Part shown: positions 6,708 through 38,605 of the stretch, piece after piece
Position numbering within the stretch: position 1 is the first letter of the stretch
Layout: each line of letters starts with the position of its first letter
Assembly (NCBI GenBank): GCA_946401865.1
Contig: CAMIVO010000002.1
Location: 2,781-66,780, forward strand
Length of the DNA stretch: 64,000 nucleotides
Reading direction: 5' to 3'
Source of the DNA: an uncultured Clostridia bacterium
Lineage (GTDB): Bacteria > Bacillota > Clostridia > TANB77 > CAG-508
Made by a program: the position numbers and the translations under genes
The notes under the pieces: model-generated
What the model was told of the DNA's origin: nothing
Databases searched by the model: none
What the model saw: only the letters and a program-made list of their open reading frames with translations

Positions 6708-6920
6708 AAGATATAAACTGTAAATCATAGGATAAATAATAAGAACTGTTAGCTTAGTACAATTCTAATTGTATACAACAAATAAATCACACTTAAAGCA
6801 ATCCCTTTTTTTCGTTCTATAATATACTTTTTCTCAAGTTTTTGAATAATTATCATCTCCATTATAATTACAATTAAAAATAACAGAGAAACATTAAACC
6901 CGTTATCATAATTAATTGGT

Positions 6921-7757: not shown

Positions 7758-8960
7758 TCAGTTTATTTTTAATTGTTTTATTCTATTTATTGCCTCTATT
7801 GAGTTTTCTTTTGTTCCAAACGCAGTTAGTCTAAGAAAGCCTTCTCCAAATACTCCGAATCCACTTCCTGGTGTTCCAACTACATTGGCCTTTTCTAAAA
7901 GCTCGTCAAAAAATTCCCAAGAAGTCATATTATTTGGTGTTTTAAGCCAAACATAAGGTGAATTTATTCCTCCATATACAGTAAACCCTGCTTCAATTAA
8001 CCCTTCTTTAATAATTTTAGCATTTTCTAAATAATCTTTTATATTTGCTTTAATCTGTTTCCTTCCTTCTTCTGAATATACCGCTTCTGCCGCTCTTTGT
8101 ATGACATACGCTGTTCCATTAAACTTCGTAGTAGTTCTTCTATTCCATAATTTGTTCATTTCAACTAAATCACCAGATTTAGTGTATCCTTTCACACTTT
8201 TTGGTATAACTACATATCCACATCTTAATCCTGTAAATCCTGCTGTTTTTGAATAACTTTTAAATTCTATTGCCACTTCTTTTGCACCTTCAATTTCATA
8301 TATGCTATGAGGAATGTTTTCTTCTGTAATAAATGCTTCATATGCAGCATCATATAATATAATTGATTTATTTTCTATAGCATAATCAACAAATTTTTTT
8401 AAATTTTGTTTTGAAATTGCCATACCTGTTGGATTATTTGGAAAGCATAAATATATTATATCTACCTTTTCTGTAGGTAATTCTGGTACAAAATTATTTT
8501 TTTCTAACACTGGCAAATATACAATATTTTTCTTTTTTCCTGACATAATATTTGTATCTACATAAACAGGATATACGGGATCTGTAATTGCTATTTTATT
8601 GTCTTCACCAAATATTTCAACAATATTACCACAATCACACTTTGCTCCATCTGATACAAATATTTCATCTAATTCAATTCCTAAATCTTTATATTCATTT
8701 TCAACAATTGCTTTTCTTAAAAATTCATATCCTTGTTCTGGCCCATAACCTCTAAATCCTTCAGAAGTTCCCATCTCATCTACTGCTTTATGCATAGCTT
8801 GAATAACAGCAGGAACAATAGGTTTTGTTACATCCCCTATTCCCAATTTTATAATTTTTTTATCTGGATTATTTTTTTGATATTCAGCTACCTTTTTGGC
8901 AATTGTTGAAAATAGATAACTATCTTCTAATTCTAAATAATTCTCATTAATTTTTGCCAT
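7758..8960 (-). CDS. dapL: LL-diaminopimelate aminotransferase
   Basis: [24 protein letters not shown]... N-terminus and aminotransferase class I fold; adjacent dapF. Confidence 0.85.
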
Positions 8961-9035: not shown

Positions 9036-9884
9036 TTAAGGTAAATATCCTTCAAAAACAGTAGTTGCAGGACCTGTCATATACACATGGTTATTTTCGT
9101 TATTCCATTCAATTTCTAGGTCTCCACCTAAAAGTTTCACTGTAACCTTCCTTTGTGTATAATTATTTAACATTGCAGATACTGCAACAGCACATGCACC
9201 TGTTCCACAAGCCAAAGTTTCTCCTGCTCCTCTTTCCCATACTCTCATTTTAAGATTTTTATCATCTATTATATTCACAAATTCAATATTAGCTTTATTT
9301 GGAAAAGCCTTATCTATTTCAAGAATTCTACCATATTTACAGATATCAAAATTATTGACATCTTCTTTTATAAATGTAATTGCATGTGGATTTCCCATAG
9401 ATACACAAGAAAATTTAAATTCTCTATCTTCTGCTTTTAAAATCAAATTTTTTACCGGATTTTCTTGTGTAATAACAGGAATTCTTTCAGGGTCTAAAAT
9501 AGGCTCTCCCATATCTACTTTTGCTAGCTTTATTTTTCCATTTTCTTCTTTCATTTCTAGTATTTTAATTCCTGCCAATGTTTCTATAGATATTGTTGTT
9601 TTATCTGTTAATCCATTATCATACACAAATTTTCCCACACATCTTATGCCATTTCCACACATTTCAGCTTCTGAACCATCTGAATTAAACATTTGCATTT
9701 TGAAATCTGCTATTTTAGATGGACATATTAATATTAATCCATCTGACCCAATTCCAAAATGTCTATCACTTACAAATTTAGCTAGTTCAGTTCTATTTTC
9801 AATATTTTGATTAATTGCGTCCATATAAACATAATCATTGCCTAAGCCATGCATTTTAGTGAACTTTAACATAATTTCCTCCAA
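9036..9884 (-). CDS. dapF: diaminopimelate epimerase (start probably MLKF at ~9872)
   Basis: [18 protein letters not shown] signature; two catalytic Cys regions ([21 protein letters not shown]). Confidence 0.85.
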
Positions 9885-11660: not shown

Positions 11661-11900
11661 GTTACAATTCACGTTTTATTATAAATTAGCCCTGTCTAAA
11701 GTTTATATATTTATTTTTAAAGTAAACTTGTGCGGGGACCACTTTCTTACAAAATGTTTTCAAATATGAGAATTTTTAGGAAGCTTGACTTCCATTAAAA
11801 AAAATTCCATATTTGATTACATTTTTGTTAGAAAGAATGGATTTACGCATAAAAATAAATATATAAACTTGGTGCAGACTAATTTATAGTAAAAGGTTAC
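11661..11900. repeat. ~240-bp palindromic-ended repeat element, copy 1 (right end degenerate)
   Basis: Shares a ~175-bp near-identical core (ttatatatttatttttaaagtaaacttgtgcggggacca...ggatttacgcataaaaataaatatataaac) with 56207-56450; overlaps stop codon of glucan-synthase fragment and lies upstream of pyrG. Confidence 0.6.
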
Positions 11901-12540: not shown

Positions 12541-14170
12541 TTACACAGCCTTTTTCTCATAAATCTTTTTAGCTACACTAAAATTATTATTTAATTCTTG
12601 TAGTGGTTTAAAGTTAAAATAAATATCAACTTGTTTGTCACTATGAATTTCAATTTTTTCTATAAATTCTCTAATTATTTCTTTAGTAGGATTTTTTATT
12701 TTTAAAAATTCTTCTACTAAATTATCTAATCTACTTTTATTCTTGTCTATATCTTTTTCTCCAGATAATTCTTGTTCAAATTCTTTTATTGATTGTTCGT
12801 AACTTTTCACAATTTCTTTTATTCTCTCTGCATTTTTCATATATTCTTCAAGAGATATAATGCCTGCAAGCCTATCTTCGTACATTACTTCTAATTTTCT
12901 TGTTTCTTTTTCAATATTTTGTTTAAAAGAATCAATTTGATTTTTCAAGTCAAATTCTTGGACTTGTTTAGACTTTGTTTGTTTTGCAATTTCTTCTAAT
13001 TTCTTTTTGTTTTTATATTCTCTGCAAACCTCTCTTAAAACCTCTAACATCTGTTCTTCAAAAACTTGATAATTGAAATTGTGTGGTGAACATACATCAA
13101 ATTTTCCAAATCTTCCATATCTTTGACATCTGCCATAAATATTTCCGTTTTTATCTGGACTTCTAATTCCAATATAGCCTCCACAGTCATAACATCTAAG
13201 TAATCCTTTAAATAAATAATCATTTTGAACTACTCTTGAGCCTTTTGTTGCTTCAATTACTCTTTTTGCTCTTTCGAAATCTTCTTTACTAATTATAGCT
13301 TCATGCATATTCTCTACTTTTACCCAATCTTCTTCAGGTAAATTTATAAATTTCTTTGATTTAAAACTCACCTTTTTTCTCTTGCCTTGTATTACTGTTC
13401 CTGTATATATTTCATTTGAAAGAATAAATCTTACAGTAGATTGTTGCCATAGCCCATAAGTTAAAGATTTTGCTCTTCTATTTCTTTTATTATAATCTGA
13501 CGGAATTGGAATTTTCTTTTTACTTAAGTAATCTGCAATTTGCATTGTACCAAAACCTGCTAAATATTTTTCATATATCAGTTTTACAACATTTGCTGCC
13601 TCTTTATCTATTATTAAATGGTATTTGTTTTCTGGATCTTTTTTATAGCCATAAGGTGCTGTTCCTAAATATTCTCCATTATTTCTTTTTGCTTGTAATA
13701 CACTGTTTATTTTCTTTGATGTATCTTTAGCATACATTTCATTTAATATTGATTTAAACGGTGCTATATCGTTATTTGAATTATCGAAAGCCGTATCTAT
13801 ATTGTCTAATATTGCAACAAATCTAACTTCATGTTCTGGAAAATAATTTTCAATATATAAACCTGATTGCACATAGTTTCTACCAAGTCTTGATAAATCT
13901 TTTGTAATAACCATATTTATTTTACCGAGATTCAATATCTGCAATCATTCTATTAAATGAAGGTCTATCAAAACTTGTCCCACTTACTCCGTCATCAACG
14001 TATTCTGATATAAAATTTAATTTATTCTGTCTAATATATTGCATTAGCAAAGTTCTTTGGTTACCAATACTTTCACTTTCTTGATACTTTTCTTTTTCTT
14101 CATCTTCTCTTGAAAGTCTAATGTATATACCTACTTTATAATCAATATTATTCATTATTGTATAGCTCAA
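12541..14170 (-). CDS. large serine recombinase (TnpX/TndX-like), split by a +1 frameshift near 13930-13944
   Basis: 13922..14170 encodes resolvase catalytic N-domain (GIYIRLSREDE...); 12541..13944 continues with VITKDLSRLGRN, recombinase domain, zinc ribbon CYDCGG...C and coiled coil; removing one c in tctCggtaaaata restores ...DIESGKINMVITKDLSRLGRN. Confidence 0.8.
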
Positions 14171-14656
14171 CTTCTACCTCCTTTTTGCTATAAAAATATA
14201 TGAGATAATATTGATACTCTTGATTTTCATTATACCATATTATCTCATCAAATACCATTGTTTCATTTTATTTTTTTATTGTTCTTAAGCAATAATTTCC
14301 AAAAGCTCTTTCTATAATCTTTTCCAATGCCTCTCCTTTTTCATTAAAAAATATATTTATCTTAAAATCATTCTTTTTCTTATATTTCTTTTTTTCTTCC
14401 AATAGCCTCACTCCTCTTGTTTTATTTTTTCCAAATTTTAGTTTTTTATACTGTTACAAGTGGATTTGCTCCCATATGAGATTTGCCCTCATTCCTCTTT
14501 TTAGAGAATCGCCCCTTTACATCACGTTAGCCAGACGAAAGTATCATTATTTGTGCTTGCAACTACTATTCAATTTTCAATGTGCATTTCCATTTTTTGA
14601 CTTTTTCTACTTTTTATAGTAAAATTATGTCAATTAAGTGTTGTATACATTATAAT

Positions 14657-14677
14657 TGTGAATTTTAGAAATTCACA
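14657..14677. promoter_or_regulatory. 21-bp perfect palindrome (candidate operator) upstream of 14714 gene
   Basis: tgtgaattt-tag-aaattcaca read directly. Confidence 0.35.
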
Positions 14678-14713
14678 CTGTACAATCTCAAAAAATTTTT
14701 TATTTATTTTAGG

Positions 14714-15751
14714 TTGTTTGATGTGGAGGTGTTTTATTTGAGTTTTAAACTAGCTTTTGATAAAAATCTCGGACTAGAATTATTTGTTTTTAAACGCATA
14801 TATTATGATAAAAGTAAAAAGATATTTTTTTCATCATATAGAACTGAGCATATGATTGACCCAATAGGTTCTTTTCTTCTTATATTTTTAAATACAAATT
14901 TTGAAGATGATGAAGATTGCAGATCTTTTGTTTTTTGGTTTTGTTTTGAAAGCTTATATTATAGAAGACATCCTGAAACAAAGAAAGCAAATCATAATTC
15001 ATCAAAACATTTAAGGCTTTCATTCTCTGAATTTAATAATGAATTAAATGAAATTGTAAAGGAATATAAAGAAGAATTTTTATACCTTAAATATACTTTA
15101 TTAAAAAATCTAAGATTACCATATGATACTGATTTTTTCAAAAAAATTGAAGAAGAAGCAGAATTTACTCCAGAAGACATACAGGAAATGAGACAAGATG
15201 AAAAAAGCTTTTTAGAAGATAAATCAATTAAATATAATGAAACAGAAATAAATGGATTTATGGAGAAATTAAATATACAATTCGAGACTTTTGGTCTAAT
15301 TTTTGATAATATAAATATTGAAAAGTATAATATTCCTTACTACTTTGAGAGTGAAGATATTTGGGCTATAATAGCTCTTTTATTTAAAGAATTTATGTCT
15401 GATAATCATAATACTATAAGACAATGCCAAAATTGTGGATATTACTTTGTTCCATCAAATTTAAAAGAAACTAAATATTGCAATGTAGAATATAAAGAAA
15501 CTGGCAAAACTTGTAGGCAAATTGGAAAAGAATTAGCTTATAAAAAATCTCTAAAAGAAGATACTCTTTTAGATAAATATAGGAAAAGATATATGTCTCT
15601 TGCAAGCTCTGTTTCACATTATGGAACAGATACTGCCATTACTAGATTTGAAAAGTATAAAAAAGATGGAGCTGTAATGAAACAAAAATATCTAAATAAA
15701 GAAATTACCCCAAAAGAATTTGAAAAATGGATTTCAGATAGCAAAAAATAG
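14714..15751 (+). CDS. hypothetical protein with C-terminal Cys4 zinc-ribbon (CQNCGYY...KYCN...C); true start uncertain (ORF-track start is TTG)
   Basis: 345-aa ORF; zinc-ribbon motif RQCQNCGYYFVPSNLKETKYCNVEYKETGKTCRQ; convergent with 899-aa gene. Confidence 0.45.
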   Translation: MFDVEVFYLSFKLAFDKNLGLELFVFKRIYYDKSKKIFFSSYRTEHMIDPIGSFLLIFLNTNFEDDEDCRSFVFWFCFESLYYRRHPETKKANHNSSKHLRLSFSEFNNELNEIVKEYKEEFLYLKYTLLKNLRLPYDTDFFKKIEEEAEFTPEDIQEMRQDEKSFLEDKSIKYNETEINGFMEKLNIQFETFGLIFDNINIEKYNIPYYFESEDIWAIIALLFKEFMSDNHNTIRQCQNCGYYFVPSNLKETKYCNVEYKETGKTCRQIGKELAYKKSLKEDTLLDKYRKRYMSLASSVSHYGTDTAITRFEKYKKDGAVMKQKYLNKEITPKEFEKWISDSKK

Positions 15752-15790
15752 AACAGGAAATCACCTCTTGTTCTATTTTTGGTCTTGCAA
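15752..15790. terminator. bidirectional hairpin between convergent genes
   Basis: agaacagg aaatcacctc ttgttct followed by T-run. Confidence 0.4.
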
Positions 15791-18490
15791 TTAGCCTATT
15801 TCCTTATCTTTTTCATTCTGCTGTTCCATAATTTGCGAAACTTGATAATTAATTTGGCTCGTCCTTATTGTAGTAGTTGCACTAACTCCACTTTCTATTA
15901 ATCCTTGTTTATTACAAATCATATTTGCAATTTCTTCACTTTCAAATAAATTATCTCTAATATCTTCTTCACTTAAACCATTTATAGTTTTCAAGCTATG
16001 ATAGATTTGTCTTAAAACTTCCAGATTTTTTTCATTTATTTCTACGTTTCTAACACCACTTATTAATTTATCAATTAATAATTCTTGCCCCATATCATAA
16101 GAATCTGACTCTATTGATATATCAGCATTTTTAAATAATCCTATTACCCTACATATATTTTCTAAATCATATTCCAATAGACCTTGTTCATAATCCTCAT
16201 TTTTAGGATAGGCAGATTTTAAAAATGTAATTATGTCATCGATTTGTTTTGAATTGAAACTATGTTCTAATAAGAAAAATCTAATAGGATCAGGAATTAC
16301 ATTATCTGTATCTTGAAAACTATCGAAATAGTCGGATAATCTTTTGCTATTATTTTTATTTTCTAATCCTGTTAGACATTTTTTTAATTTTTCTTCTAAC
16401 TCATTTCTTTGTTCACTATTTATTTCGCTTGTATTTTGCAGTTTTTCTTGCATAATTGAACAAATTCTTTTTGCCATCACGTCGCTTATACCTAAAAGTT
16501 TTTGATTATTATCATCTAATAGCATTAAACATATATCAAAATTCGTGTCATTAAAAAGCATTGAGCTATCAGTTTCTAGAAACTGATTAATACAAGCCCT
16601 TAATAAGAGATTAGTTTTGTCTTTTTCTTTAGTAAAAGCAAGTAATGTTTCGACATTAAAGTTTGGGGAAATCCTTATATTTCCATAATCAGAATTCATT
16701 ATACAATCTAATATTTCATATTCATTTTCTATTTCATATCCATATTTTTTTAATGTACTAATTGCTACACCCACATCATCATATAAATCTAAATTATTAA
16801 AAATCAATCCATCTTCAATGTTTTCTCTTACTTCATGTGGTAACTGTCCTATTTTTATTAATAATCCAATATCATCAATTTTATCTGTATATGTTATGTA
16901 AGTAGCTATATTATTTTCCAGTCCAAATAAATTACTTATGTCATTTTTTGATAGTGAAGAATAATCAATGTTGTTTAATATCTCAATAATACTTAAAATA
17001 CTGTCTGGATTTATCTGTAATAAAGGAACATTGTATATATATAGTATTTTTTGTAAATCTTCATTAGGAAGATTTATCTTTGACAAAACTTCTAATAAAT
17101 TATCATTTAAATAAAACATTGTATTTTCATCATCTTCTACTTGCTTATCATATTGTGTTTTATCAAATTTATTCCCAACCTTTTTATTTAAAAACTCTAA
17201 TATACTTGAATAATTATCTTCATCATTAAGTACATGATATTGAGCAAGAAAGTGAATAATATCACTAGTATTCGTTACTTCTTTTTCATTCATTATTTCT
17301 TGAAAAATATCAAATGGTATGCCACCTGTCAAAGACATAATTTCTTCAAAATTTGATGAATTCTCTTTATTAATTTCATACCAACCTTTAATAAGCAATT
17401 TTATAAAATCACTATAACCCCATTTAGAACAAATTTCTTTAATTTTGCCATTTGACTTTTTGCTTAATTCTTGTATATCTTCTACACTTAAACAAGAGAA
17501 TACTTGTTGTACATTATCTCTACGAATATTTGAAAAATCATTTTTTTGTAACCATTCATATTTAAGTTTATTCTCATAATATATTGCATCCATTATTGAA
17601 CAATCAACTGAATATAATGCAGGTTCTTCTCCATTAGTATGTTGTTTAATACCAGTTTCATCAATAGGATAATTAATATGATTTGCTAGTATGTTTCTTA
17701 ATTTTTTAGACGCTTGTGGTAAATATTCTGCTGTATTATTTTTAACTCCAAGTTGATTTCTTACATTAGGTAAATCTTCAGTCAAAATCATTCTCAAATG
17801 ATATCCTAATGTTTTTTCACACATATCTACAAATTTATCTTTTGAACCAAAAAAATACTCCCTTACAGCATCTATATCTATATTTTTATTTTGCAATGCA
17901 TACATAATACTACGAGTAAAATCTCCTTCACTAATATATGAATTTTGTTCATAGTATCCATTATTGTTTGCCAATTCATCATTTTCTTGTTCAGATATAC
18001 AATTTATTCTATTTCCTTTTTGTATGTAATTATTGATACTCATTTCTGCAAACAAATCTACAAGTGCTTCTTCAACAACGGCATTAACTTCCCCCTTTGA
18101 AATTAAATCCGAAAAAGCATGTGCATATTCATGTATAATAACATGTATTAGATCAATAGTATTACTATTATTTCTACAATAATTTTCTGTTAAACATATC
18201 TTTTCTTCTGTAGGACTATAGTATGCAGAACATGCTGCAGCATTTTTTGGATCTCTATCTATTTCTATTGTTAAAGTAGCAATAATGTATGTGATTTTTT
18301 CAATAATATCTTGTCCAACTATTTCATTTGCAAATGTAAGAATTATATTGCCTGCCTCTTCTATAGCATCATGCATTTGTTCAATTGTTATTGGTTCTAA
18401 ATCTTGTGTTGGTTCTTCTTTTTCTTCTATATCATCAATTTCCCAATCATCATCATTGTTTTTTATAGTTCCTTCATCATTACTATTCAT
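15791..18490 (-). CDS. 899-aa protein with N-terminal SprT-like/zincin HExxH domain (IDLIHVIIHEYAHAF), acidic N-terminus, long helical C-terminal region
   Basis: HEYAH motif in SprT-like context (TLLHEMIHA-type); no TM; last gene of a 5-gene minus-strand operon on the element. Confidence 0.5.
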   Translation of the reverse strand: MNSNDEGTIKNNDDDWEIDDIEEKEEPTQDLEPITIEQMHDAIEEAGNIILTFANEIVGQDIIEKITYIIATLTIEIDRDPKNAAACSAYYSPTEEKICLTENYCRNNSNTIDLIHVIIHEYAHAFSDLISKGEVNAVVEEALVDLFAEMSINNYIQKGNRINCISEQENDELANNNGYYEQNSYISEGDFTRSIMYALQNKNIDIDAVREYFFGSKDKFVDMCEKTLGYHLRMILTEDLPNVRNQLGVKNNTAEYLPQASKKLRNILANHINYPIDETGIKQHTNGEEPALYSVDCSIMDAIYYENKLKYEWLQKNDFSNIRRDNVQQVFSCLSVEDIQELSKKSNGKIKEICSKWGYSDFIKLLIKGWYEINKENSSNFEEIMSLTGGIPFDIFQEIMNEKEVTNTSDIIHFLAQYHVLNDEDNYSSILEFLNKKVGNKFDKTQYDKQVEDDENTMFYLNDNLLEVLSKINLPNEDLQKILYIYNVPLLQINPDSILSIIEILNNIDYSSLSKNDISNLFGLENNIATYITYTDKIDDIGLLIKIGQLPHEVRENIEDGLIFNNLDLYDDVGVAISTLKKYGYEIENEYEILDCIMNSDYGNIRISPNFNVETLLAFTKEKDKTNLLLRACINQFLETDSSMLFNDTNFDICLMLLDDNNQKLLGISDVMAKRICSIMQEKLQNTSEINSEQRNELEEKLKKCLTGLENKNNSKRLSDYFDSFQDTDNVIPDPIRFFLLEHSFNSKQIDDIITFLKSAYPKNEDYEQGLLEYDLENICRVIGLFKNADISIESDSYDMGQELLIDKLISGVRNVEINEKNLEVLRQIYHSLKTINGLSEEDIRDNLFESEEIANMICNKQGLIESGVSATTTIRTSQINYQVSQIMEQQNEKDKEIG

Positions 18491-18499
18491 TTAATACTC

Positions 18500-18733
18500 C
18501 TAATCTATCCTAATATTTGGGTTCATCTCTTGTGTTGTTTTCCATTCAATTCCATATTTTTCTTTTAATAATTTCTTTTTATAATTTTCAAAAATATGTA
18601 TATATCCTAAACCTTTTTTTATGCCTTTATCTTTTAATATTTTGTCAGTTTCTAACTCAACTTCCTGAAATATTTTTTTATATTCTTCTTTATCTTCTAC
18701 ACTATCATGTTTGAGCATAATATAAACCTCCAA
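18500..18733 (-). CDS. hypothetical small protein
   Basis: 77-aa ORF tightly packed in operon. Confidence 0.35.
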   Translation of the reverse strand: MEVYIMLKHDSVEDKEEYKKIFQEVELETDKILKDKGIKKGLGYIHIFENYKKKLLKEKYGIEWKTTQEMNPNIRID

Positions 18734-18740
18734 TCAATCA

Positions 18741-19193
18741 TTATCTTTTTATAAGATTTAATATAAATCTTTTTATTTTCTTAAATATAGAATCTTCCTT
18801 ATATTCTACCAATGCTGTTTGTGAATGTTGATTAAATTCAATGTTCTTCTGTTTATTTTTAAATAAATTGTCAGGATTATACTTTTCTCTCAGTTTTATT
18901 TGATATTCATTCTCATTATTATCGTATATCTTTTTTAATCTTTGTTTTTCTGTTTCATCCTCACACCAATATTGTAGATTAAGCAGTGCAATTAATGCTA
19001 ATGTTTCTTCTTTCAAATTCTGCTCTTTAATTGGTCTATTTGGATTTATTTCCTTTGAGTAATTTATATCTCTATTATTTTTAAAATACTCCCTTAATTT
19101 TTGTGGTATTTTATTTTTGTTATATTCATCTAATAAATTTATAAAAGTATCTATTTCCGTATATGCTTGTCTTGTTGCTATTGAAAGACTCAT
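18741..19193 (-). CDS. hypothetical protein
   Basis: 150-aa ORF in operon. Confidence 0.4.
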   Translation of the reverse strand: MSLSIATRQAYTEIDTFINLLDEYNKNKIPQKLREYFKNNRDINYSKEINPNRPIKEQNLKEETLALIALLNLQYWCEDETEKQRLKKIYDNNENEYQIKLREKYNPDNLFKNKQKNIEFNQHSQTALVEYKEDSIFKKIKRFILNLIKR

Positions 19194-19212
19194 ATATTCC
19201 CCTTCTTTCGTT

Positions 19213-20283
19213 TTATTGTTGTATATCCTCTATTTTTTCTGTCTTATCATTTTGATGTTCTTGTATTATCGTTGTTGCAACTTTTTCTACTTGCTCAGTT
19301 CTTACAGATAAAGTCGTTGCATCAATTGCACTTTCCAGTAAATCCATTCTTAACATACTAAACATATCTGCTAAACTTGAATCACTTGTTTCTTTTGGCT
19401 TACTACCATGAATGCTATTAACTAAATCATTCTTTCTTTCATCATCTAGTTTATATCTTGTATCAGTTGTTATAAATTCTGCTTTAATATCTTCTAATTT
19501 TTCTGGAGCTGTTTGTGTGATATATTTTTCAAACTCATCTTGAGCAAGTTGAATATATTCATGCATTTTTCTTATATCTTCTTCTGTAAATTCAGCATCT
19601 TCTTTTCCATTTGCTCCATATCTTAATTCATATATTCCATCTATAGCTGCACTATACCTGTCATAGTTAGCAAATTTATTAAATCTTGCAATTAATTCAT
19701 TTAATCTATCCATATTTTCATCATTTTGCATACTTATGAGTTCGTCTAATGTTATGCCCATTGATGTACAAAATAGCTTGTTTAATTTATCTTCAACTTG
19801 ATACCTTACCATATCTGTTTGAAAGCTTAAATTAAATGCATCAAATGATGTAGTTCTAATATTATTATTTGCAAATGATTTTGCCATTTCAATTGCAAAT
19901 CTATCTGTAATTGATTCATTTTGACCTATTCCATTTCCACTATGTTGCTGATGTAATCCAACATGACTATTATCAATATGCTTTGTATTATCCCAATCAA
20001 TATACTAATCTAATATGTGTTTTTCTTCATGTAAAATAAGTGTTATTGCATCTCCTTCAGTTGTAATTTGATTTATATTAAATCCTAGTGTTTGAATATT
20101 AGGATTAAAATATGCTAATCCATGTGAATCATCAAGTTCTTGTATATCTTTATTTATAATACTTCTTAATTTGTCTTCTAATTCTTCCTTTTTACTTGGA
20201 TCAAAATATCCTTTATCAATCCCCAATGAAATGATTTTATTGCTTACATCTATAAATATTCTCATAAAATCTTCACGAGTCAT
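19213..20283 (-). CDS. HExxH (HEEKH) protein, 357 codons in one frame interrupted by an in-frame TAG at 20005-20007
   Basis: Strong RBS AGAGGTGGAAT-ATG at 20283; ORFs 20005..20283 and 19213..19887 are in same frame; downstream Met lacks RBS; sequence across stop reads HEEKHILD*YIDWDNTKHIDNSHVGLHQQHSGNGIGQ... Confidence 0.5.
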
Positions 20284-20379
20284 ATTCCACCTCTAATTTT
20301 TATACAATATCTCAAAATATATATACCATAAAAATCAAAAATTTTCAATAACTAAAATAACATCATTATTGTTTATTTG

Positions 20380-21567
20380 CTACATCTCCATCTCTAAATC
20401 TTTTTCTTTTTCTTCATGTTTTATTTGTTTTTCAGCATCTAACAAAATATTATTTTCTCGTTCAAAGTCCCTAATCAAATTATTTTCAGCACCCATATCA
20501 AACTTTTTGCAAATCCACGTTATAAATATATCAATAGTTTCCTTAAATCTATCTACTACTTTGTGTAAAAAGCTATTTTCTTTTTCTAATTTATTGATTC
20601 TATTAGTATATTGCCATTCCATTTCAAATTCTTTTTTATTATATTCTTTTTTTATATTATCTACTTCATCGTGTAATTTTTCATTATCAGCTATTATTCT
20701 ATCTCTTTCTTTTTGGTATTTTTCTGCCTCTTCTATAACCTGTGCTTGTCTTGATAATTGCCTATGTAAATTCATATTATCTTGTTATAAATTTTGAATT
20801 ACATTATCCTTTGGTTTTATAATTTCTTCTAGGATTTTTTCATCTCTTTTCCTTGATAATCTATTTATATTAATATCTGTTATATCAGGAATATCTGGTA
20901 ATTCCAATTTCATATTATTCAAAATTTCTTTAGTCTGTTTAAAATTTGTTATTTTCTTATATTCTTCAACAGAATAATGCTCTCTACCTGTTTCCTCTTT
21001 TGACAATCCTCTTTGCAGGTTAAATCCATTTTCCACCATATACTTGTAAAAAGCATCTTGTAGTTGTCTGTAACTGTCTTTTGCTTTCCAAAATTCACTA
21101 CAAGCCAATTTATCAATAGAATTCCCTTTTTTATCTGTTGTATGAATTACTGGTAAAAATACTAAATGCATATGAGGCGTTTGTTCGTCCATATGCACTT
21201 TTGCAGACATTATATATTGTTCTCCTAAGTCTTTGTATTCAGATACAAATTTATATGCGGTTTCAAAAAATCTCTTTGTTTCTTCTTCTCCTATTCCTTC
21301 AAAATAATCATGATCTGATGTTATTATATATTCACAAGCTATATTACTTACTGTTTTAATTTGTCCTTTTAAATTATATTTTTCTTTTATTCTGTCAAAT
21401 TCCTTTTCATAACTATATTGTGGAGTTTTTAGTGAATAGTTTAAATATGATTTTTCTTTATCTATATTTTCATTTGAATAATTTTTATTTCTTCTTTCAT
21501 TGTGTCTAAATATTCCTTTTAAATTTTCTCTTTTGTATTTTGTATTTCTAATAATTGCATAACTCAT
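20380..21567 (-). CDS. MobV-family (Mob/Pre) relaxase; relaxase domain (20785..21567) and coiled-coil C-terminus (20380..20775) separated by in-frame TAA
   Basis: MSYAI(I)RNTKYKR... N-terminus and HMDEQTPHMHLVF HxDE..PHxH motif; ...VIQNL*QDNMNLHRQ... same frame, no RBS before downstream Met. Confidence 0.75.
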
Positions 21568-21659
21568 TTTTTCATCAACCTCCTTTAAATAAATTCTTCT
21601 TTGACTGGCTAACTAATAAGACCTATTCCTCTTAAAATTTTGCTCTTTCTCATTTGTCT

Positions 21660-21750
21660 TGTAACACAACTACAACACTTTTTTATGCTACCGCAAAAAA
21701 GTGTTAGTTGTGGCAGGGAAAAATTTTTCCCCACACCCCATTTTTCCAAA
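21660..21750. promoter_or_regulatory. candidate oriT for the MobV relaxase
   Basis: Imperfect IR caactacaacactttttt / aaaaaagtgttagttgtg with AGTGTT-AG resembling pMV158-type nick region GTGTG-TT; second IR ggggaaaaatttttccc; location just upstream of mob. Confidence 0.35.
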
Positions 21751-21814
21751 AAAATATTTCATAATATTTTTTTGAATTTATCCTAAATTTGCTTTATTGC
21801 AATTTTAGGATAAA

Positions 21815-21858
21815 AAAATCAGCTCCAAAGTAGTTTTCTACCCTAGTAGCTGATTTTA
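21815..21858 (-). terminator. intrinsic terminator after rep-like gene
   Basis: aatcagct...agctgatt hairpin followed by U-run on minus strand. Confidence 0.4.
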
Positions 21859-21877
21859 TATATGCAAATGTATGTAA

Positions 21878-32800: not shown

Positions 32801-34432
32801 TATTTTTTATTTAATCTTTCTACTTCTTCTAGTCCGCTTCGAATAACTTCTTCATCATAATTTTCTGTTTCTTTATTGGATTGTTTACAATCCCCAAGTA
32901 AGCAAAAATAAAGGTTTTGTGATTTGTTTGCAATATAATCTATTTCTAGGTTTTTAAACATTTCTTTTACTTTTTCTCTAGAGTCTACTATTGTAGGTAT
33001 TATTACAAAAGTAGAAGCATTTTCTGGAATTCCACTTTCAAAGTTCATTTTAGGAATTATTTTAGGTTTAACAAGTTTACTTAAAATATATTGTAAAAGT
33101 TGAATTATAATTTCTGAAATTGGAATAAATAAAACTAAAAAACTGCTAAGCTTTATCCACATTTTTTTATTACTTTGTGGAAAATATGTTGCAAATAATC
33201 CTGATATAATAAAAGTTAATACAAATATAGTACCAATATATAATTTTGTTTTTTTATTTTTACTTAATACTTTTTTCTCTTTGCATTGCAATTTTTCCAA
33301 TAAAATATTTATATTTTCATCTTGTAAATAATAACCTATATGCGCTTTTTTACTTTTATAATTTTCCTCATATGCTTTAGTTGCTAATTCCAATATTTTT
33401 TTTGAAATATACATCTCCGAAATTTTGGTCTTTTTGGAAATTTCTTTTATAGTATTTCTATAACTTTCTTTTGTTTTAAAATCCATTTTATCATATACTT
33501 TTGCAGGATCTAGTTTTAATATTTCTTCTACTTTATTTATATTTTCAAATATTTCTAGAAAATTAATTCTTTGTAATTTTTTTATAGATGTAATTGCATT
33601 TCCAATAGCAATTTTATTTATTGCAATATCGAAATGCTCTCTTTTGGTTATTTCTGAAACTGATGCACCTGTTTTCTCAACTTCTTCATTTAATATTTTT
33701 AAAAAATTTTCTGTTTTTTTACCATATTTTTTTAGTTTATAAGACATATATTCAACAAATGGATATTTTATATCATACATTTTTATTTTTATATTTTTTG
33801 AATTTTTATAAATATTATATTTTCTTTCACTTCTAGGTTTTCTTTCTACTAACCTTTCTATCATAGCTTCAACTCTTAATTTTTCATATTGAGAAATATA
33901 AATACTTTCAGCAATTTGCCTTATATTTTCTATAATCGCTATTTGCATAAATATGCCTATATTCCATATTTCATCCATACTTAAATTTTTCTTTTCTTGA
34001 TATGCCTTTAAACTTTCTTCTAAAATCTCTCTACTTATTTTATTTTCTGTATAATTTACAATTTGTGATGCTAATACATATATTCTTGCAAAGCCTTGAT
34101 ATTTTCCGATTTGAAAGTCCTACAAAATTTTTATATTTTTTTAATGTCATTTCTTTTTCAATAGACCTTACCACTTCTTCTATTACATAAAAATTATCTA
34201 ACAACCATTCACCAGCTGGATGAATTTGAATTTTATTTTTCACATTTTCATTTAGTAAATTATATACTTCTTTTATTACCTCATAATTTTCCATCATTCT
34301 TGGTATTGGATAAGTAATTTTATTACTTTTTTGGCAAATTGTATGACCTGCAGCTAATTTTTCTAAATAACCATAAAGCTCTTGCTTATTTAGCAGAGCT
34401 CCTTCAATTGATAATTTTCTATAATTACTCAT
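26835..34432 (-). pseudogene. GT84 glycosyltransferase + GH94 glucan synthase/phosphorylase gene (cyclic beta-1,2-glucan synthase-like), N-terminal ~2530 codons, with frameshifts at ~30985-30992 and ~34060-34080
   Basis: N-term AGEWLLDNFYVIEE and IAIIENIRQIA blocks; GT DxD (ITLDADTDL); DLLASEARQAS; GH94 RENGGQYTH at junction; ORFs 34040..34507 / 30955..33978 / 26739..30992 overlap in different frames; start MSNYRK at ~34432 with GAGGGA RBS. Confidence 0.7.
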
Positions 34433-34481
34433 ATAAATTCCCTCAAATTTTTTAATTGGGGATTTTTTTAGCACAAAAAAA

Positions 34482-34527
34482 CCCATATTTGCATTTATTA
34501 TTTGCAAATATAGGTTTTTTATGCATT
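34482..34527. repeat. 46-bp direct repeat A / bidirectional terminator hairpin
   Basis: cccatatttgcatttattatttgcaaatataggttttttatgcatt; A-run + 12-bp stem + T-run. Confidence 0.6.
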
Positions 34528-34761
34528 CTCTAAATAATATTCATATTTTTATTTATCAATATTTTCTAATTATTTTATTATTAAAAACGACATCTAAATT
34601 CATTATATAAAAAAAATTTTATACGAACTTCCATATATATTATGTTGATTTTTTTATGCTATTATGTTATCATAGTACTGCAATATTCTATATAAAATGT
34701 AGCTTAACTGTGTTATTAATCTAAATTTTATTATGATAATAATAAAAAGGGGGAAATTAAT

Positions 34762-36207
34762 ATGAGTATTCCAAATGACCAAACCTGGAAAATGAAAGAT
34801 TTTAACTCTGAGATAATCTGGAAAGATTCTCAGAATAATGTTAGCTTTGAAGAATGCAAAGTTAGTAGATTTATTCCATTTAAACATGGAGCAGCTGTAT
34901 TCGGAGGAGAGTTTGGCGATGAAGGTAAAGGCAAAAAAGTCGATGCTCTCGCAGAAAAATACAAAAAAAGTGGACTGAAAATTCTGTCTATCCGAGGACA
35001 GGGAAGTGGAAACGCCGGACATACTGTTGTGGTTGATAATAAAAAATACGATTTCCATTATTTGACTAGTGCAGGTCTTTCAGCAGACATCATGCTTCTC
35101 GGAGCTGGAATGCTGATAGATCCTATAAGAGTTCTCAACGAAATGGAAAAGCTTCCCCTAAAAAAAAGAGAAATAGTTATGGTTGCAGAAAGAGCAACTA
35201 TAGTAACCAATCTTGAGAGGATCTTTGATGGATGGTGCGAAGCACAGCACAAAGATATGAAGTCCAAGGTTGGAACAACAGGTTCTGGAGTTGGACCTGG
35301 AGCAGGAATCCGTGGCTTCCGATTTAACGTAACATTTGCAGATGCGCTTAAGTGCAAATCAGCAGATGAACTGCGTGAAAAATTTCTTAGCAATCCAATT
35401 CTTCCTGTTGACGTTAAGGAAGCTACAAAGCCAGAAGAAACAAACGTTATGCTTACCAAAAAAGTATTTTCTAAAGAATATGTGGAAGAAATCTGGAAAG
35501 CAATCCACAAATTAAACATTGTTGACAGTGTTGAAATTATTCAACGTTGTCGTGAAGAAGGCGGTTGGGCAGTTTTACTTGAAGTAAGCCAGGCTGTTGG
35601 CCTTGATCCTCTCTTTGGAAATGGTGGACATTTCGTAACATCAACTCCATGCACAGATGTTGGTGGAATTGTAGGTAGCGGTTTGACTATCTATGATTTT
35701 CCTGATGGAACAACAATGATGTGCAAAGCTTACACATCTAAAGTTGGAGGTGGTCCTTTTATTGTCAAATTCAATGACGATGAAAAAAATATCGACAAAT
35801 TTATCGATGATATGGTCTGTGAACGCGGTGTTACCACTGGACGTAAGCGTGACTTAGGTTGGTTTGATGGTCCACTAGTAAGACACACCATTGCACTTAC
35901 TGGTGCAAATGTCTCAGTAAACTGCATGGATGTAATAGCTGAACTTCCTGCAGTAACTGATACTGTTAAAGTATGCTTTGCATACAAAAATAAAATAACT
36001 GGTAATGTTACATATAGATGGCCATATAATCTTAACGATTACAAGCCTCTCTATTTATCAATGTCCATAAAAGGAATGAGTAAGAATGATATTATTAAAA
36101 ATTATATCCTCTTAATCGAAAAGGTTATAGGACAGAAAATTTTGGAATATGGAGTAGGCCCTCGTCGCGAAGATTATCGTTCGAGAGATGAAGCTTTTAA
36201 GTATTAA
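34762..36207 (+). CDS. adenylosuccinate synthetase family protein (divergent PurA-like, 481 aa, N-terminal ~45-aa extension)
   Basis: P-loop FGDEGKGK, GNAGHTV, TTGSGVGP, GVTTGRKRDLGWFD (PurA GATTGRRRR.GWLD); GGGGGAAATTAAT-ATG RBS; clearly higher GC/codon usage than neighbours. Confidence 0.8.
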   Translation: MSIPNDQTWKMKDFNSEIIWKDSQNNVSFEECKVSRFIPFKHGAAVFGGEFGDEGKGKKVDALAEKYKKSGLKILSIRGQGSGNAGHTVVVDNKKYDFHYLTSAGLSADIMLLGAGMLIDPIRVLNEMEKLPLKKREIVMVAERATIVTNLERIFDGWCEAQHKDMKSKVGTTGSGVGPGAGIRGFRFNVTFADALKCKSADELREKFLSNPILPVDVKEATKPEETNVMLTKKVFSKEYVEEIWKAIHKLNIVDSVEIIQRCREEGGWAVLLEVSQAVGLDPLFGNGGHFVTSTPCTDVGGIVGSGLTIYDFPDGTTMMCKAYTSKVGGGPFIVKFNDDEKNIDKFIDDMVCERGVTTGRKRDLGWFDGPLVRHTIALTGANVSVNCMDVIAELPAVTDTVKVCFAYKNKITGNVTYRWPYNLNDYKPLYLSMSIKGMSKNDIIKNYILLIEKVIGQKILEYGVGPRREDYRSRDEAFKY

Positions 36208-36231
36208 TCTCATATTATTTCCACCAAAAAG

Positions 36232-36277
36232 CCCATATTTGCATTTATTATTTGCAAATATGGGTTTTTTATGCATT
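36232..36277. repeat. 46-bp direct repeat B / bidirectional terminator hairpin
   Basis: 45/46 identical to 34482-34527. Confidence 0.6.
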
Positions 36278-36290
36278 AAATATATTTTGC

Positions 36291-36710
36291 CTATTCTCCT
36301 CTATCATCACCTCTTGATACGTATTTATTCTGTATTTCTTTAATATAATCTTCCAATTCTCGTCTATGTTCATCAGTAAGATATTCCTTATATCTCTTTA
36401 TCCAACTTTGCATTTCTTTAATTTTTTTAGCTATATTCTCCTCAGTATCTTTCTCAAATTCACTCTCTGGATATTTTCCAATTGGACTTTTAAAATAATT
36501 TTTTAACGCATTGCTTTTTTGTTCTGGTGTAAAAGATTTATCTCTTAATATTAATTCTTCTCTTTCTACTCCATATTCCTGTTCTCCAGATCCCCCAAAA
36601 TAAACTGTTTTTCCTTCTTTAGAAAATATTCCTGTTCTACGTTGTTCATATGGATCATGAAAGGAATTTGGTTCATGAAATGTTCCTATTACTTGAAATT
36701 TTTTTGACAT
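36291..36710 (-). CDS. hypothetical protein (start MSKKF at ~36710)
   Basis: GAGGAGG RBS before internal Met; ~139 aa. Confidence 0.45.
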   Translation of the reverse strand: MSKKFQVIGTFHEPNSFHDPYEQRRTGIFSKEGKTVYFGGSGEQEYGVEREELILRDKSFTPEQKSNALKNYFKSPIGKYPESEFEKDTEENIAKKIKEMQSWIKRYKEYLTDEHRRELEDYIKEIQNKYVSRGDDRGE

Positions 36711-36742
36711 ACTTTTTCCTCCTCTAAAATTAATATATAAAT

Positions 36743-38605
36743 TTAACAATAAAACTTTATTGAATTCTCTCCATATTTTTCTTTCTTAATTCCTCCTTGT
36801 TTTGCATATTTAAAAAATAAATGTGCTCCTTTTTCTACAGTTTCTCTAAATTCTTTAATTTCTTCATCTGAAAAATGTTTTTTGATTTTGTTTTTTAACG
36901 GAAGCCTCCGGCCTCCTCCGCCTCCACCGAAAGAGCCTCCTCCTCCGCCTCCAGAAGAGAATCCTCCTCCTCCTGAACTATAGCTTTGAGCAGCAGCTCT
37001 TGCAGAATTGGCACTTGCAATTCCTCTTGAACTACAATAATTAATATAAATTATATTATCATATGTTCCATAATTTGTTTGTTCTATCATTTCTGGGTAC
37101 AATTCTTTAAATTGTTTTGATACTTGTTTTGCAATTCCCATCATCTGAGCAAAAATCAGGTAATCTTCAAAAAGTTCTACTTCTATCGCATCTCTATCTG
37201 GAATCAAAGTATATTCTAGTAAAAATCTCTTTAATCCAGCAAGTTTCATAGCTTCGTTTTTTAATTCTGGGGTAGCTGTATATTTATCTATAAATACTAC
37301 ACCACTATTTTGCTTTGTTAAAAGTCCTTCCTCATATAATTTGTTTCTTTGTTCTTCTAAAATGTCATCAAACCAGCTTAATACCTTACTATAACTTTTT
37401 CTGCACCATATTTCAAATTCTTTGTTTTCTAATATTCCATCTTTACTGGCTACATACATCATGTGAAATAATTCAGTTTCTTTTGTATTATCTAATGCTC
37501 TATTTCTTTCATCTCCAAGTAAAATTACAGTATTTTCTTTTTTAAATATTTTTCCGCCTTCTCTGTTTTCAGTTTTTATTATTCCTTTTTTTAGCCATTT
37601 TAATATAATTGCACCTAAAATATCAGTTTTATTTTTTATTATATTATATTGGTAAGCTATATAATAGGCCTTAAAAATATCATTATCACACGGTATATCT
37701 CTAAAATAATTTACATCTCTTGGAATCTTTTTTCCAAGTGGTCCATATTTAAATCCATATTTTTTTCCTGATGTAACCTTAGCTACCAATGCTATAAATA
37801 TAAATGGCACAAATTGAACAAGTATTGTAAATACAGCAAAAATAGAATTCGTACTGCTTTCACTTTTTTTATTATATTTTTTAGAGCCTTTTTCTGCCAT
37901 ATTATAATAATGGTCAAAATCATAATCTAATACATTTTCACAATTAAAAGTGTTTAATGGGAATTTTGCAAGAATTGTCATATATTCAGAAGTTCCAAGT
38001 CTTCCATCCGAATCCATATAAATAGCACCATTATTAACATAGCAAAGTCCACCATAATTTCCATATCCCCATACATCTATGGTATCTTGAAAATATTTAT
38101 TTGAATGAATTTTTATTTTTACACTTCCTATAGAATTTGAAAAGTCATATGGAATTAGAGTCCAATATACCATTTGAGAATCTGAAAGACTAGATACAAA
38201 ATTTGTTATTGTATATTTTACAATATATGTATTTGAACCATAACTACTTATTCCCCAACAAATTTCTACTCCATTGTTAATATAATTTATTCCACATTTA
38301 TAAGCTTTACTACTTAAACTACCAGAAGTGTTCCAAGAACCTAAAGTTGTATATGTTTTTGTTTTATCAGATATAGTTAAATTAGTAATACTTGAATTTC
38401 CTAAATTATAATATGGATGGTAACTTTCTGTTCCTTGACTTGTATTACATTGCCAAGTTTCTGTAACATTAGCATTTCCATAATTATCTATAAATATATC
38501 CATATTTATACTACTTATAGAATTTGCTTGTACTTTTGTTTTAATATTTATAATAGCAATAAAAAATATTATCATAAATAAAACTTTTAAATATTTATTT
38601 TTCAT
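36743..38605 (-). CDS. DUF2207-type membrane protein with signal peptide and C-terminal Gly-rich tail
   Basis: N-terminal signal/TM, central TM pair, GGGGFSSGGGGGGSFGGGGGG tail typical of DUF2207. Confidence 0.6.
   Translation of the reverse strand: MKNKYLKVLFMIIFFIAIINIKTKVQANSISSINMDIFIDNYGNANVTETWQCNTSQGTESYHPYYNLGNSSITNLTISDKTKTYTTLGSWNTSGSLSSKAYKCGINYINNGVEICWGISSYGSNTYIVKYTITNFVSSLSDSQMVYWTLIPYDFSNSIGSVKIKIHSNKYFQDTIDVWGYGNYGGLCYVNNGAIYMDSDGRLGTSEYMTILAKFPLNTFNCENVLDYDFDHYYNMAEKGSKKYNKKSESSTNSIFAVFTILVQFVPFIFIALVAKVTSGKKYGFKYGPLGKKIPRDVNYFRDIPCDNDIFKAYYIAYQYNIIKNKTDILGAIILKWLKKGIIKTENREGGKIFKKENTVILLGDERNRALDNTKETELFHMMYVASKDGILENKEFEIWCRKSYSKVLSWFDDILEEQRNKLYEEGLLTKQNSGVVFIDKYTATPELKNEAMKLAGLKRFLLEYTLIPDRDAIEVELFEDYLIFAQMMGIAKQVSKQFKELYPEMIEQTNYGTYDNIIYINYCSSRGIASANSARAAAQSYSSGGGGFSSGGGGGGSFGGGGGGRRLPLKNKIKKHFSDEEIKEFRETVEKGAHLFFKYAKQGGIKKEKYGENSIKFYC

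Follow-up and report, generated by a model that had tools for sequence, protein, structure and literature searches.

How should one interpret a gene that resembles purA, stands out by composition from everything around it and is bracketed by two nearly identical hairpins? The gene lies at positions 34762-36207 (plus strand) of a stretch of 64,000 nucleotides from an uncultured Clostridia bacterium (contig CAMIVO010000002.1, positions 2,781 to 66,780), referred to below as the window; contigs with related loci are designated by L numbers. A preliminary description of the locus took the gene for a horizontally acquired cassette and considered a role in nucleotide modification or defense. We find it rather probable, though far from assured, that the gene encodes a divergent adenylosuccinate synthetase (AdSS) that performs the PurA reaction, and that it belongs to a module relocated beside a duplicated local terminator-like unit.

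An intact and divergent adenylosuccinate synthetase gene

Pfam, NCBIfam, residue and fold evidence indicate that the open reading frame (ORF) 34762-36207 is a genuine gene of the AdSS family, intact but divergent. It encodes a protein of 481 amino acids, and AAGGGGG lies directly upstream of its ATG. The Pfam domain Adenylsucc_synt (PF00709) matches residues 46-472 over profile positions 2-415/416 with 220 bits (gathering score 27), and GDEGKGK and the other PurA motifs quoted in the preliminary description are all found, in agreement with its claim of a complete PurA-family gene. The extra N-terminus, which that description put at ~45 amino acids, is real and common to the family members, and it extends ~40 amino acids beyond E. 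coli PurA. All NCBIfam purA equivalog models score at about half of the cut-off (TIGR00184/NF002223: 189 vs 396 and 202 vs 402). The top sequence match in the PDB is the AdSS of Bacillus anthracis (E = 1.6e-37), with 28-29% identity in the structural alignment. An AF2 model built from the family alignment has a predicted local distance difference test (pLDDT) value of 91.5 and a predicted template modeling (pTM) score of 0.90. In a Foldseek search with this predicted structure, the top 33 PDB matches are all AdSS, with TM-scores to the target of 0.78-0.86, and the closest folds are long-form enzymes of both bacteria and eukaryotes (B. anthracis, mouse, Plasmodium).

The relatives of this protein form a well-delimited group. 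A search of 5.8 billion proteins yields over 100 clusters that are 45-99% identical to it, every one derived from metagenomes or metagenome-assembled genomes (MAGs), with few named cluster members, which are labeled "Clostridia bacterium". When 1.84 billion representatives are searched exhaustively with phmmer, family clusters score 600, 338 and 335 bits and are followed, after a gap, by canonical AdSS at no more than 148 bits. A neighbor-joining tree recovers the family as a monophyletic group with a long stem; its members are 23-36% identical to canonical sequences, vs a median of 41% among the latter. The clade is a small, discrete, fast-evolving branch of AdSS, confined to AT-rich, spore-forming, uncultured Clostridia of the rumen and gut, with host genomes of 24-33% GC. 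That this is not an ordinary Firmicute PurA, as originally proposed, is borne out by the NCBIfam scores, the phmmer search and the tree. A scan of GTDB genomes with peptide patterns from the protein retrieved no relative, the patterns being too specific.

Residue conservation was assessed in 119 aligned clade members, with 130 representatives as the canonical comparison set; the roles of the residues are taken from the established literature on E. coli AdSS and from PMC8342488. All 119 members are identical at the catalytic residues Asp13, Lys16 and His41, in the P-loop, and at N38, T129, Q224, T239, V273, R303, R305 and D333. Q34, R143, T300 and T301 are kept in at least 115 members, and each of the contacts to inosine monophosphate (IMP; N38, T129, R143, Q224, T239 and V273) and each residue of the aspartate loop (T300, T301, R303 and R305) in at least 116. 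Position 128 is T in 109 members and S in 10. Because the catalytic residues and those that contact IMP, aspartate and guanine are kept throughout, the clade most likely represents a working GTP-dependent IMP:aspartate ligase, a prediction that draws on residue conservation and fold. Such an enzyme would catalyze the GTP-dependent phosphorylation of IMP at O6, followed by displacement by L-aspartate to give adenylosuccinate, and on the same grounds would be the AMP-branch enzyme of its host organisms.

Other positions set the clade apart. Four clade-invariant replacements, R/K131S, K331C, R272K and A223S, fall at positions that are near-fixed in the canonical set, as do R147T and R306D, which are found in most clade members. 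Position 131 is Ser in 118 of the 119 clade members, and R or K in 117 of the 130 canonical representatives. Among the guanine-motif positions, D333 is invariant and K331 is Cys in 119 of 119, and position 414 (S414 of the guanine site) is Gly in the clade, as it is in 37 of the 130 canonical sequences. Given these clade-wide changes, the substrate or its regulation may differ from those of canonical AdSS. Residue 131 may have a part in aspartate binding; nothing on the role of Arg131 or on a second class of PurA was retrievable from the literature. The architecture of the protein is altered as well: the N-terminal extension spans roughly 10-40 residues across the clade, a 6-residue insertion downstream of the P-loop helix is clade-wide, and an additional insert of ~16 residues at ~225-240 is confined to the window protein and its nearest relative.

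These features could also belong to a neofunctionalized paralog that coexists with a canonical purA and either catalyzes a related ligation on a changed substrate (a different nucleotide, amine or amino acid) or has a regulatory or conditional role, for example, in sporulation or salvage. The changes at R/K131 (S), K331 (C) and R306 (D) adjoin the aspartate and GTP sites, and the common N-terminal extension, the internal insertions, the fast evolution and the equivalog scores below the cut-off all fit such a scenario. However, the contact residues for IMP, aspartate and guanine that can be checked are all invariant, no conserved partner gene accompanies the gene in 12 contexts, and searches revealed neither a known riboswitch nor a known regulator site at it. 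We therefore consider the paralog scenario doubtful, although it deserves to be kept in mind.

Set against canonical AdSS (EC 6.3.4.4; B. anthracis structures 4M0G and 4M9D, E. coli 1ADE and 1CG0), the purA-like protein has the same full-length Pfam domain and fold, the GDEGKGK P-loop with Asp13 and Lys16, His41, the IMP contacts, the aspartate loop and the guanine-reading D333, and its gene stands alone, just as canonical purA is monocistronic in model bacteria. It differs in its low identity (23-36%), equivalog scores at about half of the cut-off, ~40 extra N-terminal residues, the inserts of 6 and ~16 residues, the R/K131S, K331C, R272K and A223S replacements, rapid evolution, and a GC content at third codon positions (GC3) at least twice that of the host core.

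PurZ, defense and the compositional anomaly

The suggestion of a PurZ-like nucleotide-modifying role finds no support in the comparisons. The NCBIfam model for PurZ (NF038379) scores 36.6 bits vs a cut-off of 300 and matches the N-terminal third only. Phage PurZ have Ser in place of Asp13 in 100% of members (PMC12884076) and lack the R303 contact to the ribose 2' position, which R303 and V273 read in AdSS (PMC8342488); Asp13, R303 and V273 are all invariant in the purA-like clade. In the Foldseek search, PurZ and PurZ0 rank far below AdSS, at 13-17% identity. PurZ and PurZ0 (6FM1, 7ODX, 7VF6) belong to the same superfamily and share the overall ligase chemistry but are short forms of ~340-370 amino acids with Ser for Asp13, encoded in phage dZ clusters, whereas the purA-like protein is a long form that keeps Asp13 and has no phage context with datZ, mazZ or dutZ. 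A PurZ identity is rejected on the strength of the kept Asp13, the NF038379 score, the preference for AdSS folds and the non-phage chromosome.

A role in defense fares no better. Clade members are absent from 50,697 phage records (matches of at most 28% identity), from the matches listed for IMG/VR (all at most 30% identity, with an empty scan for a clade-specific motif) and from the plasmid collection (matches of at most 29% identity); what these searches list is canonical purA. Among the PHROGs, only the generic AdSS phrog is matched, and PADLOC, applied to the protein and its left and right neighbors, gives no defense match save a weak one of coiled-coil type for ORF152, a small downstream ORF. 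An anti-phage function is rejected for the lack of a PADLOC match to the protein and of clade members in the phage and plasmid collections and, among the matches listed and by motif scan, in IMG/VR.

Composition provided the original argument for import. The gene has a GC content of 0.38, vs 0.26 for the window, and a GC3 of 0.27, vs 0.07-0.17 in 40 other window ORFs, a set that includes the housekeeping genes pyrG (0.13) and topA (0.15). The label "GC-rich" holds relative to these neighbors and not in absolute terms, at 38% GC. The codon shift in the window gene chiefly involves C-ending codons, CGT and CTN, without enrichment of four-fold G-ending codons, and the amino acid composition of the protein is less AT-shifted than that of PyrG or TopA. 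The anomaly is not peculiar to this genome: in all 12 host lineages compared (window, L002, L006, L009, L016, L017, L020, L106, L108, L109, L111 and L112), including those with rho-linked loci, the GC3 of the purA-like gene (0.23-0.48) is at least twice that of the host core (~0.10-0.20). Translational selection was considered as the source of the high GC3 and is ruled out, because dnaK of L006 (GC3 0.05) has almost no ATC, CGT or AAC and so avoids exactly the codons that are enriched in the purA-like gene; pyrG and topA, at 0.13-0.15, are likewise low. Being family-wide, even at rho-syntenic loci, the GC and codon anomaly is no mark of recent import into this genome.

Promoter and genomic contexts

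The purA-like gene stands alone in every locus, with its own promoter and its own terminator, and has no conserved partner gene across the 12 contexts. In the window, a promoter scan combined with conservation identifies a sigma-A-type promoter at 34645-34673 (plus strand) with TTGATT, a 17-nt spacer and the extended -10 element TG-n-TATCAT. The -35 and extended -10 elements are kept in L009, L002, L017, L006, L111 and L112, and a near-consensus arrangement (TTGAC, 17 nt, TGnTATAAT, then TGCAATATTCT) is common to the differing contexts. Because the promoter is conserved even though the genomic contexts differ, we conclude that it travels with the ORF. The leader motif TGCAATATTCT, located just downstream of the -10 element at 34679-34689 (plus strand) and aligned in the window, L009, L002, L017 and L111, could function as an operator or form part of the region in which transcription starts. 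Rfam searches of the window, the locus (at a permissive E-value) and seven homologous loci returned only tRNAs and spurious miRNA-like matches on hairpins; thus, Rfam detects no purine, T-box or other riboswitch upstream of the gene, and the leader motif matches no Rfam family. From this near-consensus extended -10 promoter, the gene would be transcribed singly, with transcription ending at the downstream hairpin.

The contexts themselves vary widely. The gene is found downstream of prfA-...-yabP-yabQ-divIC-rho in four lineages (L016, L020, L109 and L112) that span both subclades, downstream of a PGA_cap gene in L002-5 and L017-19, between hrcA and grpE in L006, near cohesin, dockerin or MucBP genes in L009 and L111, and next to an integrative mobilizable element in L108. 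The window location is not the commonest position of the family. In L006, CIRCE-like inverted repeats are present at 6740-6775 and 9440-9482, and because hrcA and grpE each have their own CIRCE-like repeat and promoter, the usual hrcA-grpE-dnaK operon is interrupted there.

Among the rho-linked lineages, the purA-like proteins are 44-76% identical, vs 79-90% for Rho and PrfA, with broadly congruent relationships, and between the sister species L002 and L017 the gene and its flanks diverge in step. The rho synteny, the congruence with Rho and PrfA and the co-divergence with the flanks together indicate a long-resident, fast-evolving chromosomal gene. These results bear directly on the proposal of a recently acquired horizontal cassette that has the hairpin repeats as its boundaries and possibly a nucleotide-modifying (PurZ-like) or anti-phage function. 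The GC3 outlier status in the window, the flanking direct repeats, the variable region and the positions of the L108 homolog beside a mobilizable element and of the L006 homolog between hrcA and grpE are all as expected for such a cassette. The same scenario is contradicted by the GC excess in all 12 lineages, syntenic ones included, by the lack of PurZ hallmarks and of a PADLOC match, by the failure to find the clade in phage, IMG/VR (among the matches listed and by motif scan) or plasmid collections, and by the other family loci, which have no flanking repeats; we regard it as highly improbable. What survives of the cassette idea is a self-contained module at a site other than the commonest one.

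The hairpin units and the cyclic glucan synthase leader

The hairpin units, delineated by repeat and fold analysis, occupy 34462-34527 (copy 1, stem-loop 34476-34520) and 36212-36277 (copy 2, stem-loop 36226-36270), and each comprises an 18-bp stem with a 9-nt loop, flanked by an A-tract and a T-tract; in copy 1, ATGCATT follows the T-tract. Their cores (34482-34527 and 36232-36277) are identical at 45 of 46 positions and the extended units are 89% identical over 66 nt; the copies share orientation and lie 1750 bp apart, so that the reported arrangement of a single gene between two terminator-like hairpins is confirmed. The 64-kb window contains two copies, with none expected from shuffled sequences, and a profile search of the window reveals no further diverged ones. 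Both copies fold on both strands with -20 to -25 kcal/mol (z-scores of -4 to -6.7), and in each fold the stem is preceded by an A-tract and followed by a U-tract (U6-U7). The stem is AT-rich, with three G:C pairs, and is perfect in copy 2, with one mismatched position in copy 1. A scan with a terminator consensus does not recover the hairpins because the 9-nt loop falls outside its 3-8 range. Copy 2 is a predicted shared bidirectional terminator-like element that serves the purA-like gene on the plus strand and the convergent ORF152 (36291-36749) on the minus strand, and copy 1 precedes the start of a cyclic-glucan synthase gene (cgs) on the minus strand by ~40 nt.

Searches for the hairpin core among metagenome and GTDB contigs retrieve four contigs (L012, L013, L014 and L015) from a related species group, with coding flanks that are ~85% identical. 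In all four, the unit occupies the orthologous place, directly upstream of the ribosome-binding site (RBS) of a cyclic beta-1,2-glucan synthase-like gene, and the purA-like gene is absent there. Beyond the unit, the neighbors vary: a surface-repeat protein in L012 and L013, uncharacterized genes in L014 and a purN-like formyltransferase in L015. The latter gene (L015 6364-7101; RUG13298, CADAHH010000003.1) is alone, diverges from cgs and occupies the position that the purA-like gene has in the window. From the presence of the unit at the orthologous cgs site in four contigs with varying neighbors, we conclude that copy 1 is the ancestral one and that synteny breaks off at it. Between the window and the related species, the stem and loop show no difference, a conservation above that of the coding flanks, and the 29-nt core of the unit has one exact copy in a related reference MAG.

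L014 carries three copies of the unit within 7 kb (2826-2890, 7803-7865 and 9476-9538), with blocks of 4.9 and 1.7 kb between them. The third copy includes part of the cgs leader and its RBS, and the arrangement mirrors that in the window. These three copies around uncharacterized genes suggest a recurrent insertion spot upstream of cgs. Elsewhere, window positions 59362-59470 and L014 7744-7865 share an orthologous 74-nt promoter-like segment (92% identical), downstream of which the window has a different terminator hairpin and L014 has the "CCCATATTTGCA..." hairpin; terminator hairpins thus appear to have been swapped at one site.

In its 18-bp stem, A- and T-tracts, stability on both strands, the position of copy 2 between convergent genes and multi-copy occurrence within the lineage, the unit resembles bidirectional intrinsic terminators and repeats of the REP/BOX type. 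It differs from them in the AT-rich stem, the 9-nt loop and complete conservation between species with ~85% identical coding flanks, and the location of copy 1 directly upstream of an RBS is unexpected for a plain terminator. At the other family loci, flanking direct repeats are absent and so is the hairpin at the 3' end of the gene, where the terminators are unrelated; hence, the repeat is not a general cassette boundary. With two copies in 64 kb and one exact 29-nt core in the related MAG, the hairpin is a terminator-like repeat of low copy number that is specific to its lineage. An integron cassette with an attC site was considered and rejected on inspection, given the conserved promoter that the gene has of its own, the uninterrupted stem and the lack of GTTRRRY at either end. 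The window ORFs that were scanned with Pfam include no tyrosine recombinase.

Could the two hairpins be irrelevant to the arrival of the gene, that is, dispersed terminator repeats that lie on either side of it by coincidence? The three copies in L014 at other loci, one of them where the window has a different hairpin, are what one would expect in that case. Such a coincidence nevertheless appears unlikely to us: there are just two copies in 64 kb and a single exact core in the reference MAG, the copies share orientation and bracket exactly one promoter-gene module over 1750 bp, and the similarity runs past the stem into the cgs-leader side, much as the leader/hairpin copies of L014 bracket foreign blocks. 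Bolder, and in our judgment quite improbable, is the possibility that the R131S, K331C and R306D replacements denote an AdSS-like ligase with a changed amine or nucleotide substrate, carried in a compositionally "alien" module, and that the cgs hairpin/leader functions as an att-like recombination site that repeatedly captures modules without an integrase, both in the window and in L014. Under the scenario that we favor, with PurA chemistry retained, copy 1 would be the ancestral unit in the cgs leader, the promoter-ORF module would have been placed beside it at a variable chromosomal spot, and recombination at the unit, or its duplication, would have left the 66-nt unit on both sides.

The flanking genes and a second contig of the same species add detail to this picture. 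The cgs-like gene (with GH94 domains) runs on the minus strand from 34433 down to 26739 and is split into three ORFs: the N-terminal piece (34040-34433), which is separated by a frameshift near 34103-34107 relative to the intact 1177-amino-acid N-terminal ORF of L012 and L013, continues in 30955-33978 and 26739-30992, and the second split, at ~30955-30992, coincides with the end of an ORF in L012. L001, an independent contig of the same species, is 99% identical to the window from 10 nt before the ATG through copy 2, which is kept with the 3' end of the gene, and then again downstream; upstream of the gene, the two differ. In place of window positions 36273-36896, including ORF152, L001 has a 228-bp palindrome (1608-1835) that resembles a miniature inverted-repeat transposable element, and at least two other copies of this ~230-bp palindrome are present in the window, at ~11661-11892 and ~56204-56451. 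A 21-nt identity between ORF152 and the purA-like genes of L002 and L017 was dismissed as a chance "KEYLTDE" match.

A Pfam scan of its ORFs identifies the window as part of the chromosome of a Clostridia-like bacterium. It contains a probable integrated mobilizable element (~12541-26447) with a large serine recombinase (12541-13944), a Mob_Pre relaxase (20785-21567), an HTH_36 protein and an AbiEii toxin (24834-25787); in L108, the purA-like gene has a comparable set of genes next to it. At 54688-55851 (plus strand), the window also encodes a transposase of the IS110 family (DEDD_Tnp_IS110 and Transposase_20 domains).

Several observations weigh against a relocated gene with ordinary PurA function. 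With every NCBIfam purA equivalog, the protein scores at about half of the trusted cut-off (202 vs 402), and the sequence changes at positions 131, 331, 272, 223, 147 and 306 leave room for a substrate or a regulation that may not be the canonical one. The clade evolves about twice as fast as the neighboring housekeeping proteins, which would be surprising in an essential enzyme without a backup. The GC3 excess across the clade, opposite to the codon bias of host dnaK, has no explanation. Only in the window is copy 1 seen joined to the purA promoter, L001 diverging 10 nt before the ATG. Finally, no empty site (ORF152-hairpin-cgs) was found in the contigs compared, so that insertion is an event we infer.

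The locus has implications beyond itself. The duplicated hairpin/leader unit, which hints at a recurrent insertion spot, is a local curiosity. The retention of GC-richer codons in hosts with 24-33% GC bears on the trust that can be placed in the equation of compositional outliers with recent horizontal gene transfer. Annotation pipelines label members of this clade "adenylosuccinate synthetase" by the domain alone, although every equivalog threshold is failed, and whether or not the clade provides the sole AMP-branch enzyme of these uncultured rumen and gut Clostridia bears on their metabolic reconstruction.

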